From Mobula hypostoma (Eukaryota), in the NCBI RefSeq assembly GCF_963921235.1, contig NC_086097.1, positions 58,964,001-59,028,000 on the forward strand: a stretch of DNA of 64,000 bases, read 5' to 3'. The notes under the pieces are model-generated. The model saw only the letters and a list, made by a program, of their open reading frames with translations, ran no database searches and was not told where the DNA came from. This document shows positions 1,050 to 62,790 of this stretch, piece by piece; position 1 is the first letter of the stretch; every line of letters starts with the position of its first letter. A program made the position numbers and the translations under genes.

Positions 1050-1513
1050 GGATCCCTTTTGCCTTCTCATGGACAATATTCAGTGCAATTTCACCTCCTC
1101 AGATCTCACCTGTTTTAAGTGGACCACATTGAAACAAAACTATCCAGAAAACTGGCAAAGCCCCTCAGGGTGAGCTGATTACCATATCTTCAGTGGTTTA
1201 AAATTAGGTCATTCACAGACGGTGGATTAATGCTGATTAAAAATTCTTATTTTTTATGATCAAACCCTTTTCACTGCATTTAAGAAATTTTAAACAGATG
1301 AGATAATTTTAGAATATTTAAAAACTAAAAGCAATACTTTGCAGGTGCTGGAAATCTAAAATAAAATTGCTAAATAGGCTCAGTGGATCAGGCAGTATTT
1401 GTAGTCTTCAGTTCAGATGCAAGAACTATTCGTTTCACCAGATTCTTCCTCACTCACTCACTATTTCCAACATCTTCTACTGAATATTTTATAAAGCAAT
1501 TTAAAATATTTTT

Positions 1514-4504
1514 AAAAAATTACTCCAGCACCCCAGGGCACATTCAAAACCCAGACTCCAGCACCATCACTGGCGGCTCCAAAGACCATGGACACCTTCA
1601 AAGCGATTGCGCAACCACCAACTGCGACTCCAGCCTTGAACTCCTGGCCAGGTCTTCACATGCTGCTATTGTGACTCCCGTCTCCCCTTCCTCACCACCA
1701 CTCTGCAACCCCGTCTCCCTCAGATACCCCCGTCAACTCCTGGACCTTCAGAGGCTCCATCTTCCTCTCACCCCAACCCTCCCCCTCCACTGACACTACC
1801 AGCCTCCCTCCCCCTCCACTGACACTACCAGCCTCCCTCCCCCTCCCCCCTCAGATCCCACTTCTCATCCGTGCCAGGTCTTTACCATCCCCTCCAATCT
1901 TCAACTCTCTGAGGCAGAACGCTCTGTCCTCAGTAAGGGCCTTACCTTTTTCCCCCTTCACCCACACCTCAACGAGTTCCGTGTTCGCCATGATGCTGAA
2001 CTCTTCTTCCGCCGGCTCCATCTTCAAGCCTACTTCTTTGGCAAGGACTCTCCCACCCCCACCGATGACCCCTACTCCCATCTTCAATCCTCCTCCTCTT
2101 CATGGACACCCCGCTCTGGTCTTCTGCCTGCTCTGGATCTCTTTATTGCTAACTGCCGATGGGATATCAACTGTCTCGAATTTACCGCACCTTGTTCCCA
2201 TTCCAATCTCACTCGTTCTGAACGCTCTGCTCTCCACTCCCTCCGCACTAATCCTAACCGTACTATAAAACCCGCCGATAAATGGGGTGCTGTTTTACCC
2301 TGGCGTACTGACCGCTACCTTGCCAAGGCACAGCGACAACTCGCGGATACCTCCTCTTATTTACCCCTCCATCATGACCCCTCTAAGGAGCACCAGGCCA
2401 TTGTCTCACACACCATCACCAACATTATCGGCTCAGAAGACCTCCCATCCACTGTTACCAACCTTTAGTTCCCACACCCCGCACTTCCCGTTTCTACCTC
2501 CTACCCAAGATCCACAAAGCTGCCTGTCCAGATAGACCCATTGTTTCAACATGCTCCTGCCCCACCGAACTCATTTCTGCATACCTCGACACTGTTTTAT
2601 CCCCCCTTGTTCAATCCCTTCCTACCTATGTTCGTGACACTTCTCACACTCTGAATTTTTTCAATGATTTTAAGTTCCCTGGCCCCCACCGCTTTATTTT
2701 CACCATGGATGTCCAGTCCTTATATACTTCCATCCCCCACCAGGAAGGTCTCAAAGCTCTCCGCTTCTTTTTGGATTCCAGACCTAACCAGTTCCCCTCT
2801 ACCACCACTCTGCTCCAACTAGCAGAATTAGTCCTTACTCTTAATAATTGCTCCTTTGGCTCCTCCCACTTCCTCCAAACTAAAGGTGTAGCCATGGGCA
2901 TCCGTATGGGTCCCAGCTATGCCTGCCTTTTTGTTGGCTTTGTGGAACAATCCATGTTCCAAGCCTATACTGGTGTCTGTCCCCCACTTTTCCTTCACTA
3001 CATCGATGACTGCATTAGCGCTGGTTCCTACACGCATGCTGAGCTCGTTGACTTCATTAACTTTGCTTCCAACTTTCACCCTGCCCTCAAGTTTACCTAG
3101 TCCATTTTTGACACCTCCCTCCCCTTTCTTGATCTTTCTGTCTCTGTCTCTGGAGACAGCTTATGTACTGATGTCTACCATAAGCCTACGGACTCTCACA
3201 GCTACCTGGACTATTCATATTCCCACCCTGTCTCTTGCAAAAATGCCATCCCCTACTCACAATTCCTCCATCTCTGCCGCGTCTGCTCTCAGGATGAGGC
3301 TTTTCATTCCAGGACGAAGGAGATGTCCTCCTTTTTTAAAGAAAGGGGCTTCCCTTCCTCCACCATCAACTCTGCTCTCAAACGCATCTCTCCTATTTCA
3401 CGCACATCTGCTCTCACTCCATCCTCCGGCCACCCCACTAGGAATAGGGTTCCCCTGGTCCTCACCTACCACCCCACCAGCCTCCGGGTCCAACATATAA
3501 TTCTCCGTAACTTCCGCCACCTCAAACGGGATCCCACCACTAAGCACATCTTTCCCTCCCCCCCTTTCTGCTTTCCGTAGGGATCGCTCCCAACGTGACT
3601 CCCTTGTCCATTCATCCCCCCCATCCCTTCCCACCGCTCTCCCTCCCGGCACTTATCCTTGTAAGCGGAACACGTGCAACACATGCCCTTACACTTCCTC
3701 CCTCACCACCATTCAGGGCCCCAGACAGTCCTTCCAGGTGAGGCGACATTTCACCTGTGAGTCGGCTGAGGTGATACACTGCATCCGGTGCTCCCGATGT
3801 GGCCTTCTATATATTGGTGAGACCCGACGCAGACTGGGAGACCACTTTGCTGAACACCTACGCTCTGTCCGCCAGAGAAAGCAAGATCTCCCAGTGGCCA
3901 CATGTTTTAATTCCACATCCCATTCCCATTCTGATATCTCTATCCACGGCCTCCTCTACTGTAAAGATGAAGCCATACTCATGTTGGAGGAACAACACCT
4001 TATATTCCGTCTGGGTACTCCAACCTGATGGCATGAACATTGACTTCTCTAACTTTCGTTAATGCCCCACCTCCCCTTCATACCCAATCCGTTATTTATT
4101 TATTTAATTTATTATTTTCTTTTCCCTTTTTTTTCTCTCTTTTTTCTCCCTCTGTCCCTCTCACTATACTCCTTGCTCATCCTCTGGGCTCCCCCTTCCT
4201 TTCTCCCTAGGCCTCCCGTCCCATGATCCTCTCCCTTCTCCAGCCTCGTATCCCTTTTGCCAATCAACTTTCCAGCTCCTAGCTCCATCCCTCCCCCTCC
4301 TGTCTTCTCCTATCATTTCGGATCTCCCTTCCCCCTCCCACTTTCAAATCTCTTACTATCTCTTCTTTCAGTTAGTCCGGACGTAGGGTCTCGGCCGAAA
4401 ATTTCGACTGTACCTCTTCCTATAGATTCTGCCTGGCCTGTTGCGTTCACCAGTATTTTTTGTGTGTGTAGCTTGAATTTCCAGCATTTGCAGATTTCCT
4501 CATG
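1514..4504 (+). mobile_element. Penelope-like element (RT + GIY-YIG endonuclease), 5'-truncated, disrupted ORF
   Basis: ORF pieces carry PLE RT motifs (MDVQSLYTSIPH, QTKGVAMG, YIDD at 2705-3100) and GIY-YIG (CIRCSRCGLLYIGETRRRLGDHFAEHLR, 3738-4028). Pyrimidine-rich 3' region and degenerate hammerhead tail at ~4370-4505. Candidate TSD TTTA(A/C)AATATTTTT at 1500-1513 and 4505-4518. Confidence 0.93.
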
Positions 4505-4870
4505 TTTACAATATTTTTGATTCATTTTTATTTTGTATCACAATTTGCAATGGAGTTTGAAGGAGAAACACTTTTCTAAAATTAGGGAGACACATTTGGA
4601 CTGCGTGTACACTGCAAAGACTATTTTTTCTGATATCAACTTATTGCTCATCCCTCTCCCATCACCTCAGCATTTATCATTGTGGAAATCCTGTCCTCAA
4701 AACCCCATCACTCCAACTTTCTTTCCACTTTTCCGGCCTTCCTTTGAACCCACTTCATCAAGCAAACTTTACATTGTCTTATTTTAATGGCTCTTTACCT
4801 CTGTGCCTTCATTTGGCTTTTGGAGCTTGGATTTACGGTCAGCTTCAGAAATACAATATCAATTTATGCT

Positions 4871-6942: not shown

Positions 6943-8040
6943 TGTGAGGAATAGTCATTTTCCAGGGCTCCAGAGTCTTATTGCTAAACTCACCCTTCTA
7001 GCACAGCAGCATGACTTATCCAAAGGGTCAGAATTATTGGTGATGAAGTTAAACTTTTAACAAATATTCTTTGCTCAGCTATTCGTTGTAAATAAGAAAC
7101 AGTCTGTATTTCCTTATGTAAGTTACGAGCAGCAATCAGCTTGATGCACAGCTTTGCTAAAAAACCATGTTACAGAACGCAAGCTGCTGGCTCACAGCAG
7201 ATGGCTGCCTGCTTCGAGGTCTGCTTTGCAAAGTGAAGTGACCAAGAAACTTCTTGTCTGCAGGAGCCAAATGCAAGACAAAGGGGTTATGTCACATAGC
7301 ACATCAGACCTGTTTAAAAGTTTGGTTGTTTGTGTATTCAGAGGGTCAGCTCTCACAACATTAATTGTGAATGTTTGCGATCTCTGTCACCAGCAGCCTT
7401 TAACACTATCTTGTGACTTACTTTGTCCTGACAAAAATATCTGGAAAACATCATGTGCAGATGATATCAGTCAGTAAAAAATAGTATAAATATCAAAAGC
7501 ATTGGGAATCTTAGGAATGACAAGAAGAATGATAGAAAGGTGGGGCTACAGAAAACAGAATTAGAATTTATTCCTCAACTTTTGGTTTCTGCAACAGGTA
7601 ACGTGATTGTCTGCAACTCACTGGTACATTCTTCTAGTTCAGAAGAATTGCATCTGTGTTTGGAAATTCTTTGTAGCCTGTAAATCTTTTATAATTCAGA
7701 AATCTTTTATAAACTAGAAATCCACTGTGAGCATGAAATGTTAAGAAATATTTGTTGAAATGTAAACATGTATCGTTAAAAATAAAATACAGTATCGGAG
7801 TTTAGCTGGAAGTAGTTCCTACTTGGTTGTGAGAGGGGAACCCACCACTCAAGCAGTGAGTATTGACAGCTAGATCTCACCGTAGACACTAGACAAGAAA
7901 CCTAAGCTAGGTCTTGAAGAGTAGCTGGATAGAGCATAACCCCCCTGTAGTGAGAACATCCATAGATATCAAAATCAGTTTGGGCTTAAAATCTTCTTTT
8001 GAGTTTAGGGCTTTGTGGACAGGAAACCAATATCATCACA
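6943..8040 (+). mobile_element. Solo LTR, second family (~1.1 kb)
   Basis: TGTGA...TCACA termini. 4-bp TSD GAAT at 6939-6942 and 8041-8044. TATAAATA at ~7485, AATAAA at ~7781. Co-linear homologue at 29041-30060. Confidence 0.82.
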
Positions 8041-8089
8041 GAATAAAAACTTGAGGAGAAAGGACATGACGAAAGAGACAAGGGTGGAA

Positions 8090-58597: not shown

Positions 58598-59310
58598 CTG
58601 TGAAATCTTCATCGGATCTCCAACACAATGCTGCAACTTCCTGTCCCAGTGTCATGCACTTTGAGCTCCAATCATCTCCGTATTTTACAGATCAAACCAA
58701 GATTGCTGTTGTGATCTTTCTTTTGACTGAGAAAGCTCTGACCAGGGCCACCTCTAACTGGGACAATAAGACCCCCATTTGCAACCGATATGAGAATTTC
58801 ATCATTGAGATGCACTGGATTTTCGACCATCTGGGAAGTGGGAGGGAGGCAGCAGATCAGGTACTTAGCCTGCATCAAGGCTCATGCTCAATACTGGATT
58901 ACAACGTGGAATTCAGGACCCTTGCGGTGGATTCTGGTGCAACAGGCAACTCTCTGGACTAGATTCTGTGTGTGGAGCTTGGAGTCCATATAGAGCCTAT
59001 CTCTCACCCTTTCTCCATCACAGCCATTGACAGACATCCCTTGGAGTCTGGGATAGTTAGAGCGTATACACGATCTGTACTCAGGAGCATTAGAGAGCAC
59101 CACACGTGCAGCCAATTCCTCCTTATCGACTCATCCAACACTTCTCTCATCCTGGGTAACGCCTGGCTCTCCAATCACAATCCTCACTTCACCCGGTCGT
59201 CTGGTTCACTGCTGAGTTGGGGACCTGCCTGCCAAGCCACCTGCCTGCAACCTCAGTTGATTTCACCCCATAATTCCGTGAAGAAGGAGGAAAGTCTCAA
59301 CTTTACCAAA
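58598..59310 (+). mobile_element. Ty3/Gypsy (sushi-ichi/PEG10-RTL1-like) gag-protease relic
   Basis: Gag motifs FIGSPTQCCNFLSQC, HFELQ, KIAVVIFLLTEKAL, FDH, LHQGSCSILDYNVEFRTLA. Aspartic protease VDSGATGNSLD...LILGNAWLSNHNP. Confidence 0.85.
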
Positions 59311-59937
59311 GGTGTTATTGTCTTTTTTAAATGCACTTGTTATGATCACAAGAGTCTTCTGGATGTTGAGAACTTAAAGTGCTGCAGGGCTACCCCATCA
59401 GCGAGGGGCAGAGAAGCTGAAGGAGCTGGACTTACTGTGGATTGTGCTGTGTCAGAGAAGTCGGTGTACCAAGGTGCTGCGCAGCCTAGCAGTCAGTGAT
59501 TGTCATAGTCACGTCTCTTGTGATCACAAGACCCTGCTGGACATTGGCAATGTGGAATGTTGCAGGTCCAATTCACTGTTCTATTGCTGAACGGCATGGG
59601 AGTTATGTGGCCTTCGTCATAGCCACGAGTAGGCCTCCTACCTCACTGTCGCCCGTTTGCAGCCAACCAGGAGGAAAGTGTTGGAGTTGGTGCGCTCTAC
59701 CTGAGACAGCGTGGCACAGCATCCATGCTGGAGACAATGCTGCTCTCCAGTGTTTGCTCGGCAGAAAACTAGATGTATTGCGTTTGGCTGCTGACTGCTG
59801 CAACATTTGTGGACTCAGGGACTTAGACTTTATATTTTTTTGTTTCTGACTGTATTTTGTTGTTGTCTTGTATGTGCAATGTGTGCCTTATGCTGTGAAT
59901 GACTGCTAGTACTGTGTTTTGCACTTTATTCCCAGAA

Positions 59938-62213
59938 CGTCATCTGGGTTGGTCATGGTGGGAGCATAGGCACTAATCAGCGTAGCACTCTTCTTGTTTG
60001 CAAGTGGGAGCTAAAGTGTCATCAGGCGGTCGTTGATGCTCTCGGGGTGCTTGGTGAGTTTATGGGCGGGGTTAGAATTGATAACAAATCCCACGCCTGC
60101 TTCTCGTCGTTCAGCGCTGCTGCGACCACTCCAGAAGAACGTGTATCCACCACTACGTTCTGTCAGCTGGCCCTTGTCTGCTGGGGGCGTTTCGCTGAGA
60201 GCTGCTATGTCCACGTTGTAGTGAGCTAGCTCTTTTGCAACCAGTGCAGTTCTTCTCTCTGGTCTGTCTGCCTTGATGTTATCTCGCAGAGCTCTCATGT
60301 TCTATGTGCCGAGGTTGAGCACCATCACTTTCTTCTTCACTGTTGTAGGTCGACCGCTATGAGGGATCCCCACCAGCCGCGGTAAGCTGGCCAGGGTGAA
60401 GTGAAGCAGACTATGTTTGAGGCACCTTTTCCAGCCCCTTCCTCCATGGAGGTGAGCAGAGCCATCCTAAAGAGGGCTGCTCAGATACCCAGGGGGCTGC
60501 CGAACTCAACTGCTGCTTCAGTCCAGTAGAGAGCGACCCTATGCCCTGGGCCGCCTGTGTGCAGGTTTGTGACTACAGCTTCCAGTGTATCCGTACCTGC
60601 TGCTTCGCCACTCCCCCATCGCCACAGGACTTTAGGTTGCGTGTTGGGTTTGAAGTCATGACTTGCGCTTGACTTGGATTAAAGTGAGGGAGAGTTGCGC
60701 AGGTCGTCAGCCTCACTCTCTCGTCCCGGCCTATCTGGACCCAGTGGCAAGACATAGTCAAGACGGCTAGAGATAGGTCAGGATGCAGTAGATGGCCAGC
60801 AGTGTTCTGTGTGTCTCACTGTGCCCTCTTAGTGCTCCACGATGCATTGCTGAGAATCGCCTTTCTGCCCGTTGAACCAGTGATGGTTTCTTCCGCGCAG
60901 TCCACCGAATCCAGGCTTCACACGCCAGGTAGACAAGCCCTGAGTGTTGTGGGTCTACGGCAGTTCTTGCGGTGTGCTCGCAAGCCTCCCTACCCATTGT
61001 TGGGCATCCTCATCCACCTTTGCAGCCATTGAGAGATGTCTCCTCTGCTGCCTTTGAGCGGGGCCACGGGTGGGTGAGTGAGAGCGTGGGCGCCGTGTCG
61101 GTGCGGGTGTTGCGCACGTCCGGCTCCCGTGGCGCCACGCTGCTGCCCTACCGGACGACCGAGGGCACGGCCAAGGTGGGCGAGGACTTCATGTTTGCTG
61201 ATGACTGCGCACTCAACGCCAGCACAGAGCAGGAGATGCAGCGTGAAATAGACTGCTTCTCACAAGCCTGCGACAACTTTGGTCTCACTATCAGCACCAA
61301 AAAGACCGAAGTTATGTACCAGCCTGCCCCAGGAAAGCCATACCAGGAGCCGCGCATCACGGTGAAGGGTCAGAACCTCCAGGCAGCCGACAACTTCACC
61401 TACCTGGGCAGCATACTCTCTCGCGCAGTGAACATCGACGCTGAGGTCAACAACAGGATTTCCAAAGCCAGTGCCGCCTTTGGGAGACTCCGTGAGAACG
61501 TTTGGGAGCGGAGAGGACTCAGCCTTACCACCAAGCTGAAGGTCTACTGTGCAGTGGTCCTTACCACCCTCCTTTATGCCAGCGAGACCTGGACTGTCTA
61601 CAGCAGACACGCCAAACAGCTCAACCACTTTCACCTGAGCTGTCTCCGCAGACTCCTCCACATCAGGTGGCAGGACAAAGTTCCCGACACGGAAATCCTG
61701 GAACGAGCTGGGCTCTGCAGCGTCTACACCCTCCTGCTGAAAGCCCAAGCCAGGTGGGCTGGACATGTGGTCAGAATGCCAGACAGCCGATTGCCTAAGC
61801 AGCTGCTGTACGGAGAACTGTGTCAGGGCAAGCGCTCAGTCGGGGGGCAGAAGAAACGTTACAAAGACTGCCTGAAAGCGTCCCTCAAAGGCCTGGGTGT
61901 CGACATCAACACGTGGGAGACGCTTGCCCTCGACCGTCCAGCTTGGCGCAGCAAGATCACCACAGGAGCCCGTGCAGCTGAAGTCAGGCGCATCATCGAG
62001 GCGCAACGAAAGTGTGCTGTGCGCAAGGCCCGAGCAGCATCCACTGCCACGACAGCACCCACCCACTTGTGTCCCACATGTGGGCGAGCCTTCAGGGCCC
62101 GGATTGGCCTCATCAGTCACCTCCGGACCCACAGCCACCAATCTCCCATTTGAATTTGAAGCCATGGTCATCTTCAACTACGAAGGACGAACAACAACAA
62201 CAACAACAACAAC
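59938..62213. mobile_element. RTE-clade LINE insertion with 5' inversion and a captured host fragment
   Basis: Minus 59938-~61049: 5' UTR and APE start (RPERRTALVAKELAHYNVDIAALSET, GYTFFWSG, ISAYAPT). Plus 61185-62213: MFADDCAL, FTYLGS, YASETW, RWAGHVVRM, CPTCGRAFRARIGLISHLRTH, (CAA)n tail. Exact 10-bp TSD ATTCCCAGAA at 59928-59937 and 62214-62223. Confidence 0.94.
61050..61190 (+). pseudogene. SLC8A: Captured fragment of a Na+/Ca2+ exchanger (SLC8A/NCX) Calx-beta domain coding sequence
   Basis: Translates AFERGHGWVSESVGAVSVRVLRTSGSRGATLLPYRTTEGTAKVGEDF, matching the NCX CBD2 start as I recall it (TFE....HVSESIG.MEVKVLRTSGARG.V.VPYKT.EGTA.GGGEDF). Very GC-rich with about 18 CpG in 141 bp. 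Paralogue not determined. Confidence 0.88.
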
Positions 62214-62296
62214 ATTCCCAGAATAACGATGTTTCATTTGGCTGTATTCATGAGTATTCATGTATGGTTGAATAACAATTAAACCTGAACTTGAAC

Positions 62297-62790
62297 TAGT
62301 TTTGGTCACCCTGAATAGGACAGATATTGTCATGCTGGAGATGATGCAGAAGAGATTTACAAGGATTCTGCCTGGACTAAAAAGGTTCAAGTTATAGGGA
62401 CAGATGGCCATGCTAGATTGCGCTTCCTTGGAGAAAAGAAGAATGAGGGGTGACCTCATAGAAGTTTATAAAATCATATAGAGTAGGGATAAGATGGGCA
62501 GTCATAGTTTGTTCCTTGGGTTGAGGAGTCCAAAAGTAGAGGGCCCAGGTACAAGATAAGAGCGGAGAGATATAAAGGAAACCTAAGAGGTAACTATTTA
62601 TGAAGAGGGCTGTGAGTACCTGGACTGAGCTGGCAGAGCAACTTCTCAAGGTGGATACAATTACAGCTTTTAAGAATTATATGAATGGGAGGGCTTGGAG
62701 TGTTATGGCCTAGGCATGGGCAATAGAGGGGATGGTGTGGTAGGCATGGGGCAGTTGGGCAGAAAGGCCTGTGCTGCATTACTCTTTGTG
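62297..62790 (+). mobile_element. Decayed CR1 3' fragment
   Basis: FWSP, MQKRFTRILPGL, SLEKRRMRGDLIEVYKI. Confidence 0.75.

Follow-up and report, generated by a model that had tools for sequence, protein, structure and literature searches.

How does a fragment of a host ion-exchanger gene come to be read in one frame with the reverse transcriptase (RT) of a retrotransposon? The question is raised by a 64,000-nucleotide stretch of Mobula hypostoma DNA (RefSeq assembly GCF_963921235.1, contig NC_086097.1, positions 58,964,001 to 59,028,000 of the forward strand; hereafter the window, to which all plain coordinates refer), in which an RTE-like long interspersed element (LINE) carries, fused to its RT, the beginning of a Calx-beta domain of a Na+/Ca2+ exchanger (NCX, encoded by SLC8A genes). 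Our assessment, which we hold with a probability of about 0.62, is that the Calx-beta piece is a passenger of the 5' leader of a small RTE-like LINE subfamily, and that the window contains a dead copy generated by one 5' inversion of the twin-priming type, from an RNA arranged like another member of that subfamily found on contig C50.

Anatomy of the fusion and of the insertion that carries it

The Calx-beta piece occupies 61050-61190 on the plus strand. Its 141 bp translate as AFERGHGWVSESVGAVSVRVLRTSGSRGATLLPYRTTEGTAKVGEDF (47 amino acids) and read without a stop into MFADDCAL..., inside an open reading frame (ORF) at 60972-62153 that has a GTG start, encodes 393 amino acids and ends with a stop codon at 62151-62153. 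Against the Pfam Calx-beta profile (PF03160) the peptide scored 34.9 bits (cut-off 27; E = 1.7e-8), covering positions 10-56 of 119; it is cut at GEDF and therefore falls short of the complete domain, a seven-strand sandwich of ~119 positions. The peptide aligns with the start of the second Calx-beta domain (CBD2) in the NCX1 structures 3us9, 8jp0 and 8sgi (whole-sequence E values of 1.7e-16 to 3.6e-15), and its matches among NCX1 and NCX3 structures reach E values down to 1.7e-16. The composition of the piece sets it apart from its surroundings, with a GC content of 0.70-0.74 compared to ~0.55-0.60 in the flanks, and 18 CpG dinucleotides at an observed/expected ratio of 0.99, compared to 0.59 in the RT part.

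The insertion as a whole measures 2276 bp (59938-62213), falls into three blocks, and is bordered on either side by a single 10-bp target-site duplication (TSD), ATTCCCAGAA. The 5' duplication lies at 59928-59937, with LINE homology beginning at 59936-59938, and the identical 3' duplication at 62214-62223 adjoins an (AAC)8 tail without a gap. In paralogous copies of the host repeat, contigs from related organisms connect 59927 with 62237 through ~23 other letters, which is consistent with the proposed insertion boundaries.

The first block is LINE sequence on the minus strand. It starts with the N-terminal coding part of the apurinic/apyrimidinic (AP) endonuclease and the proximal 5' untranslated region (UTR) (59938-60335), equivalent to positions 1531-1930 of L039, a near full-length copy (G000:C22) that we used as the family reference. 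The endonuclease ATG is at 60298, and 60011-60298 gives an Exo_endo_phos match (Pfam, E = 1.6e-5); identity is 94% to L039 and 95-96% to 39 other scored copies of 267 candidates. Next comes a leader segment of ~300 bp, here called Y (60336-60642), which the window copy has in common with C50 and C9 and which is missing from C22 and many canonical copies. In many of the latter the endonuclease part adjoins directly the segment that follows Y here, and contigs of related organisms likewise jump from 60335 to 60643. This following segment, X (60643-61049), is the canonical 5' leader of the family in inverted orientation. It is 96-97% identical to the 39 copies scored out of 547 candidates, and these matches mostly end at 61046. 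The inverted leader and the exon piece meet at 61049-61053 in an overlap of ~5 nt, which reads CGCCT in C50 and TGCCT in the window, the breakpoint being common to both.

The second block is the exon piece, assigned from the profile, structure and genome matches to the CBD2 start of an slc8a4-like exon 2 of a LINE-borne lineage. Its last six bases, GACTTC (61185-61190, plus strand), encode D-F in both partners, as comparison of family and exon copies indicates, and form a 6-nt microhomology at the joint with the third block. That block (61191-62153, plus strand) is the 3' part of the LINE ORF: RT from FADD onwards (RVT_1 positions 151-204 of 205), the C-terminal region, a C2H2-like finger that matches the zf-C2H2 profile weakly, and the stop codon. 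It is 97-98% identical to 39 scored copies of 747 candidates, so that RT part, X and endonuclease segment are similarly close to canonical copies. A 36-nt 3' UTR and the (AAC)8 tail (62154-62213, plus strand) complete the element, the tail type being the same in other copies.

With one 33-mer search allowing up to 3 mismatches, the Calx/FADD junction was found at a single place in the genome, which fits a joint made in the window insertion itself. A functional chimeric protein is unlikely: no ATG starts the ORF, which occurs once and includes under half of a Calx-beta domain and no more of the RT than its C-terminal third. The match of frames across the fusion is incidental, and the ORF has neither a function nor a role. 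In these respects our results bear out a first-pass annotation of the window made from its letters only, which had described the in-frame join, the GC- and CpG-rich segment, its derivation from the CBD2 start near the 3' end of a large NCX coding exon (now matched at 92% on contig C82), its position inside a 10-bp TSD, the RDFLFADD reading usual in RTE RTs (RDF/LLFADD in this family) with a GACTTC microhomology, and the improbability of a working product in view of the partial domains and the GTG start.

The donor gene

Across the genome (3.48 Gb; 8 of 8 candidates scored) the piece occurs at eight places, and not at the single near-identical one that had been expected at first: the window, the gene itself, one paralogue with 72% identity, and five more LINE-borne copies. 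The best gene match (G000:C82:6387602-6387742) is 92% identical (130/141) and belongs to an intact gene on contig C82. The exon concerned is 1.7 kb long; it begins 20 nt upstream of the initiator Met (exon 2 start: GATCGAGG) and encodes a signal peptide, transmembrane segments, the first Calx-beta domain (CBD1) and the start of CBD2. Its end reads ...GEDFVGLSGQLLFQNDETV, 45 nt past GEDF, and is followed by a GTAAGT donor. Exon 3 lies 65 kb downstream on the same contig, starts GAAAACCATC and reads (V)KTIEVQIINDEEYEKNKNFF; the passage from V into KTIEVQ bears out both donor and phase.

Four NCX-type loci are present in the genome. Among named relatives, the C82 exon is matched best by 'solute carrier family 8 member 4a/4b' from coelacanth, gar and teleosts; a database protein 100% identical to it is labelled sodium/calcium exchanger 1-like of a ray. 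An slc8a4-like paralogue as the source is thus supported, going by the names of the best matches rather than by a tree, with 92% identity to the C82 exon versus 72% to the next paralogue. The tentative SLC8A4 attribution of the first-pass annotation agrees with this on the same terms, the gene reading GTAKAGEDF. We also observed a tandem array of ~60-bp units (...GGGGTCAGACACAGAGTGAAGCTCCC...) ~400 bp upstream of the slc8a4-like start codon on G000:C82 (L035 about 7690-8050). It directly adjoins the large-exon acceptor on the 5' side and is open in the exon's frame.

The carrier LINE family

In L039, positions 1355-4747 form one frame that encodes Exo_endo_phos (E = 2.2e-9) followed by RVT_1 (E = 3.5e-32), with 2 stops. 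All 19 copies examined have the motif ATC AGA GAC TT(C/G) TTG TTT GCT GAT GAC (IRDF/LLFADD), with C in 10 and G in 9 of them. The tail of the window copy, a 36-nt UTR followed by (AAC)8, is of a type found also in C22, C58, C91, C9 and C50. In RTE-clade elements the 3' UTR is, as Malik and Eickbush reportedly described in 1998, very short and ends in short tandem repeats rather than poly(A). The carrier is probably a member of the RTE clade, an assignment that goes by the single endonuclease-RT frame, the short 3' UTR and the trinucleotide tail rather than by an RT tree. Relatives of its endonuclease are labelled 'craniofacial development protein 2-like' in many animals, a label that is presumably linked to RTE elements. 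Proteins 59-74% identical to the endonuclease region of L039 (1355-2626) were seen in shrimps, tapeworms, a priapulid and a soft coral. Such distant relatives would fit the wide, possibly horizontal, spread of RTE-type LINEs that is reported in the part of PMC6007223 available to us.

Other LINE-borne copies of the exon piece

The exon piece is carried by six LINE copies, namely the window copy and those on C50, C58, C22, C91 and C9. In all five that extend beyond GEDF, homology to the gene stops at the last base of the exon (...GACGAGACCGT), 45 nt past GEDF, and where the gene continues with GTAAGT the LINE copies read TTTTAACAGGCGG.... A breakpoint exactly on the splice donor points to capture at the RNA level. 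Two possible flanks were considered and ruled out. An exon 2-exon 3 junction, as in a processed pseudogene, would continue with GAAAACCATC and not with TTTTAA; a back-splice junction, as in the abundant circular RNA that the first-pass annotation mentioned for mammals, would place the exon 2 start GATCGAGG after the exon end, which it never follows in the LINE copies.

What does follow the exon is LINE leader in an altered order. The four leader segments of canonical copies, U-V-W-X, share a single orientation (35 of 40 scored copies, from 197 candidates). In C9, by comparison, the 178-193 nt after the exon are the reverse complement (rc) of canonical U+V (84-86% identity; 4 of 4 canonical copies tested), and the rest of the leader follows in direct orientation (95%); where the orientation changes, a few bases occur twice. 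We refer to this order, exon - TTT(TAA) - rc(leader U+V) - W - X - ORF, as A-type. The TSDs of these copies differ (C22, ATATTGCTGGTA; C91, CTGGAGAAAAGAT; C58, ATTTTTC; C9, GTC(A/G)TAATG), as do the 5' truncation points within the exon piece among A-type copies, which indicates that the A-type composite was retrotransposed repeatedly. Translated by eye from the alignment, the A-type exon plus leader runs into a stop after ~50 codons, and no coding extension was seen. C58 (L003 1501-2243) and C91 (L006) have the same internal deletion, in which X (at the equivalent of window 60643) is joined to the last ~56 nt and the tail; this short form is non-autonomous, ~740 bp long, and known from at least 2 insertions with different TSDs.

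C50 (G000:C50:19595385-19600366; L030/L037) is a near full-length element, with a 732-bp insertion in the RT C-terminal region, and is arranged differently. The exon piece and rc(V) stand inverted ahead of X, W and U are gone, and the joint is a 5-nt overlap of CGCCT in the exon with AGGCG in X. This is the arrangement expected from a 5' inversion of an A-type RNA.

Relation of the window copy to the LINE-borne lineage

The window is colinear with C50 (L004) from 59936 to 61164, across the leader/exon breakpoint, over 1229 nt at 94% identity, and segment Y is common to both. Within the exon piece, the window and the gene differ at 11 sites in 141 bp. At two of these, 61175 (G) and 61187 (C), the window agrees with all five other LINE-borne copies and not with the gene; at a third, 61137 (A), it agrees with C50 only. 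The remaining 8 changes are private to the window, 6 of them being CpG transitions. The second of the lineage bases lies in the joint: the gene has GATTTC, whereas three of the five LINE-borne exon copies have GACTTC (C50 has AACTTC and C22 has GACTTG). Because of the two bases common to all five copies, and of GATTTC in the gene against GACTTC in the lineage, the window piece descends from a LINE-borne copy and not from a transcript of the gene.

On the RT side, loose ends of relatives' contigs before 61185 (X5 and X13) read canonical ...GTCATCAGA. Together with the family motif, this places the join within GACTTC at 61185-61190. Since both partners read the microhomology as the codons D-F, the frame was kept, for which the chance was one in three.

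The first-pass annotation had suggested a recent event on account of the retained CpGs, which is half right. The CpG richness itself (18 CpG, ratio 0.99) stands; against recency, the 141-bp piece has 8 private changes, of which 6 fall at CpG sites. The event does not look very recent, since its LINE parts are 95-98% identical to the nearest canonical copies and the exon piece shows 5.7% private change, mostly CpG decay.

Proposed origin of the window insertion

The events that we propose would have taken place in three steps. First, as the copies show in outline, slc8a4-like exon 2 became linked exactly at its splice donor, probably through an RNA-level event, to a LINE whose first ~200 nt of leader were inverted in place, and the resulting A-type composite was retrotransposed to a number of positions, the extent of 5' truncation differing among them. 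A 5' inversion of an A-type RNA may then have yielded the C50-type element, with rc(V)...rc(exon piece) joined at CGCCT/AGGCG to X - Y - ORF, so that a C50-type RNA would read, in order, rc(exon piece), X, Y, endonuclease, RT and tail. The window insertion, judged from its anatomy, would be the product of one target-primed reverse transcription (TPRT) of such an RNA. The first cDNA, primed on the (AAC)n tail, would have halted at GAC TTC in the RT. From the opposite side of the staggered break, a second cDNA would have been primed at reference position ~1930, inside the endonuclease region, where two bases (AA) overlap the TSD; its synthesis would have passed back through Y and X and ended at GAAGTC in the inverted exon piece. 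The 3' ends of the two cDNAs would then have paired over 6 nt and been joined, with loss of reference positions 1931-3781. Such joining would give the observed order, the observed orientations and the single TSD. Having been inverted twice, the exon piece would have returned to sense orientation beside the RT, and by chance in frame with it.

What twin priming leads one to look for is found at the locus: one TSD around a sense 3' segment with its tail and an inverted, more 5' segment, joined on a 6-nt microhomology. Both segments are present in the C50-type element in the orientations that the proposal needs; the actual parent was not found.

A number of observations weigh against this origin. 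In the exon piece C50 and the window agree at only 88%, and C50 has AACTTC, which makes it a cousin and not the parent; it has no recognisable TSD; and the breakpoint that it shares with the window could in principle be a recurrent microhomology join. Base 61191 is an A, which gives an ATG, where the family has T and the exon copies have G. The gap between the priming points is ~1.85 kb (reference 1931-3781), a loss above what is usual in L1 twin priming. It is for L1 that this process has been described, and no test of it for RTE-type elements was found in the literature searched. Both junctions are taken from the assembly. The first step has difficulties of its own. No splice acceptor could be assigned, as 3-6 nt of filler (TTT/TTTTAA) separate exon end and LINE, and canonical copies have ...CCGTACCAGG at the matching place, with no AG in register. 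Nor was a source locus found: a search with the exon/LINE junction motif returned the known copies and matches near the control level (28 vs 13), with none on C82, and there is no LINE of the family within 8.2 kb downstream of the donor exon, the part of the 65-kb intron that was covered.

Other origins of the locus have to be set beside the double inversion of a C50-type RNA. According to the first-pass annotation, the RT would have switched template at GACTTC from the LINE RNA to an SLC8A transcript (here an slc8a4 mRNA or exon-2 circular RNA) during the window insertion, and copied 141 nt. The sense orientation, the frame and the microhomology at the join would all suit this, and template switching to cellular RNAs is described for L1 in the part of PMC13174262 that was available. 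It is very unlikely here, as the gene has GATTTC and AAA where the window and all five other LINE-borne copies have the GACTTC-type C and AAG. Moreover, the 5' end of the piece joins the inverted LINE leader at the C50 breakpoint, and not further exon or the TSD, and five other copies carry the piece, none with a back-splice junction. These cannot have descended from the window copy, since they run 45 nt further, to the exon end. A different path from the LINE-borne lineage would be a window copy made directly from an A-type RNA, in which the cDNA jumped from GACTTC in the RT to GACTTC in the leader, in the same orientation, and continued to the RNA 5' end, while a twin-primed cDNA (endonuclease region to X) was joined to it at CGCCT/AGGCG. 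A-type RNAs have a sense exon piece upstream of the RT, with GACTTC in 3 of 4 A-type copies (C22 has GACTTG), and the longest exon pieces, those of the window and C50, begin at the same gene position, which is possibly the RNA 5' end. We consider this path unlikely, because a single insertion would have had to combine two unusual sub-events, and the 5-nt join would have arisen on two occasions; the window and C50 also have 61137 A and Y in common.

The joint could also have been made after insertion, by a microhomology-mediated DNA deletion of ~2 kb between two GACTTC sites of a longer head-to-head, palindromic LINE insert. Long inverted repeats are unstable, and a deletion between 6-nt repeats gives the same junction, one that is unique in the genome. 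Such a history is improbable all the same, as the precursor that it calls for, rc(APE..X) followed by a full A-type element, is absent from all 8 piece-bearing places, and one TPRT event accounts for the TSD, the tail and both junctions. Finally, the junctions might be repeat mis-joins of a chimeric assembly. No sequencing run contained half or more of the words sampled from the stretch (DNA contigs of related organisms came highest, with a share of 0.30, and the shares of RNA runs were small), and no listed relatives' contig bridges 61190/61191, although four runs with family-level cover have low depth over 61018-61191 and are uninformative on the join. An artefact is scarcely credible given the perfect TSDs, the placing of both internal joins on microhomologies, and the recurrence of one of these joins at an independent locus.

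For the capture of the exon itself, a speculative and rather improbable mechanism is that the free 3' end of exon 2 in a splicing intermediate (...CCGU) primed reverse transcription on the complementary ACGG at the start of leader segment W, and that the trapped CpG-rich piece then served as a new 5' end or promoter. If true, this priming would explain in one step why the exon abuts inverted leader. The MAST2 exon of SVA_F1, in so far as the available part of its description goes, is the model for the suggested promoter or 5'-end role.

Relation to known processes

Twin priming as a source of 5' inversions in L1 was reportedly set out by Ostertag and Kazazian in 2001. The window insertion resembles L1 twin-priming products in its sense 3' segment with tail, its inverted and more 5' segment, its single TSD and its joint on microhomology. 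It differs in that the element is RTE-like, that ~1.85 kb between the segments is missing, and that the RNA would already have contained two older inversions. That host exons can be cis-spliced to LINEs or SVAs, that insertions can arise by twin priming, and that such composites can amplify later has been described before, as far as can be told from the accessible parts of PMC13174262, PMC6139936 and PMC4245944, and the present case is a fresh instance of known processes in a new element and host.

The closest likeness for the passenger is exon trapping by splicing followed by amplification, as described in the part of PMC6139936 at hand for SVA_F1 (MAST2 exon 1) and chimpanzee pt_SVA_D6 (STK40 exon 1). 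As in these groups, a GC-rich host exon stops exactly at its donor and adjoins the 5' part of a non-LTR retroelement; the composite is found at several sites with varying lengths of exon retained; and, as in pt_SVA_D6, a short filler (CATG there, TTT/TTTTAA here) obscures the acceptor. The differences are that the carrier is an autonomous RTE-like LINE with inverted leader beside the exon, and that it has trapped the 3' end of a large, internal-looking coding exon instead of a first exon. Copies number 6, compared to 84-94 in the SVA groups as given in the portion of that source available, and, unlike for SVA_F1, the promoter role of the ray exon piece is a suggestion only. The pattern that marks exon trapping is present in part: the host end coincides with the donor in 5 of 5 copies reaching it, and there are several independent insertions, but no source element was found in or near the donor gene.

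Composites of cis-spliced upstream exons and intronic LINE-1, for example with RAP1GDS1, are also known from the accessible part of PMC13174262, which has cis-spliced composites in two independent insertions; the mechanisms listed there, cis-splicing, template switching and twin priming, are those that come into question here. Like these mRNA/LINE-1 chimeras, the host-exon/LINE composite described here took part in more than one independent TPRT event; unlike them, it involves another LINE clade and a ray host, and its source locus was not found. At the protein level the 47 residues align with the first beta strands of CBD2 of NCX4 (slc8a4), and the CBD1, the transmembrane part and the complete fold of NCX4 are lacking. 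In the literature searched there was no report of an slc8a4/NCX4 piece in connection with a retrotransposon, RTE or exon trapping, nor of RTE twin priming in elasmobranchs.

The value of the case is mechanistic and for annotation, the product being a dead, non-functional, truncated copy. It would provide an example outside mammals and outside L1/SVA of part of a host coding exon being picked up at the RNA level by a LINE and carried to new sites, and suggests that repeated 5' inversions can shuffle a passenger into frame with an element's ORF, a route by which domain fragments could in principle become fused to new partners. For annotation, it means that six 'Calx-beta' matches in this genome are LINE passengers and not genes.

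Surroundings of the insertion

The LINE is nested in another high-copy repeat (59800-59927 and 62224-62400), whose flanks are joined in relatives' contigs; contig depth in relatives rises to 42,489 at 62236-62322. Within the inverted leader, the summed depth of relatives' contigs at 60670-60756 is 10-30x that of the neighbouring leader (X5: 58,889 vs ~2,000-3,000), and this ~90-bp part may also occur in a short repeat of very high abundance, possibly a SINE-like one. Further 5' of the insertion, the sequence at 58600-59300 resembles, on reading, the coding region of another retroelement.

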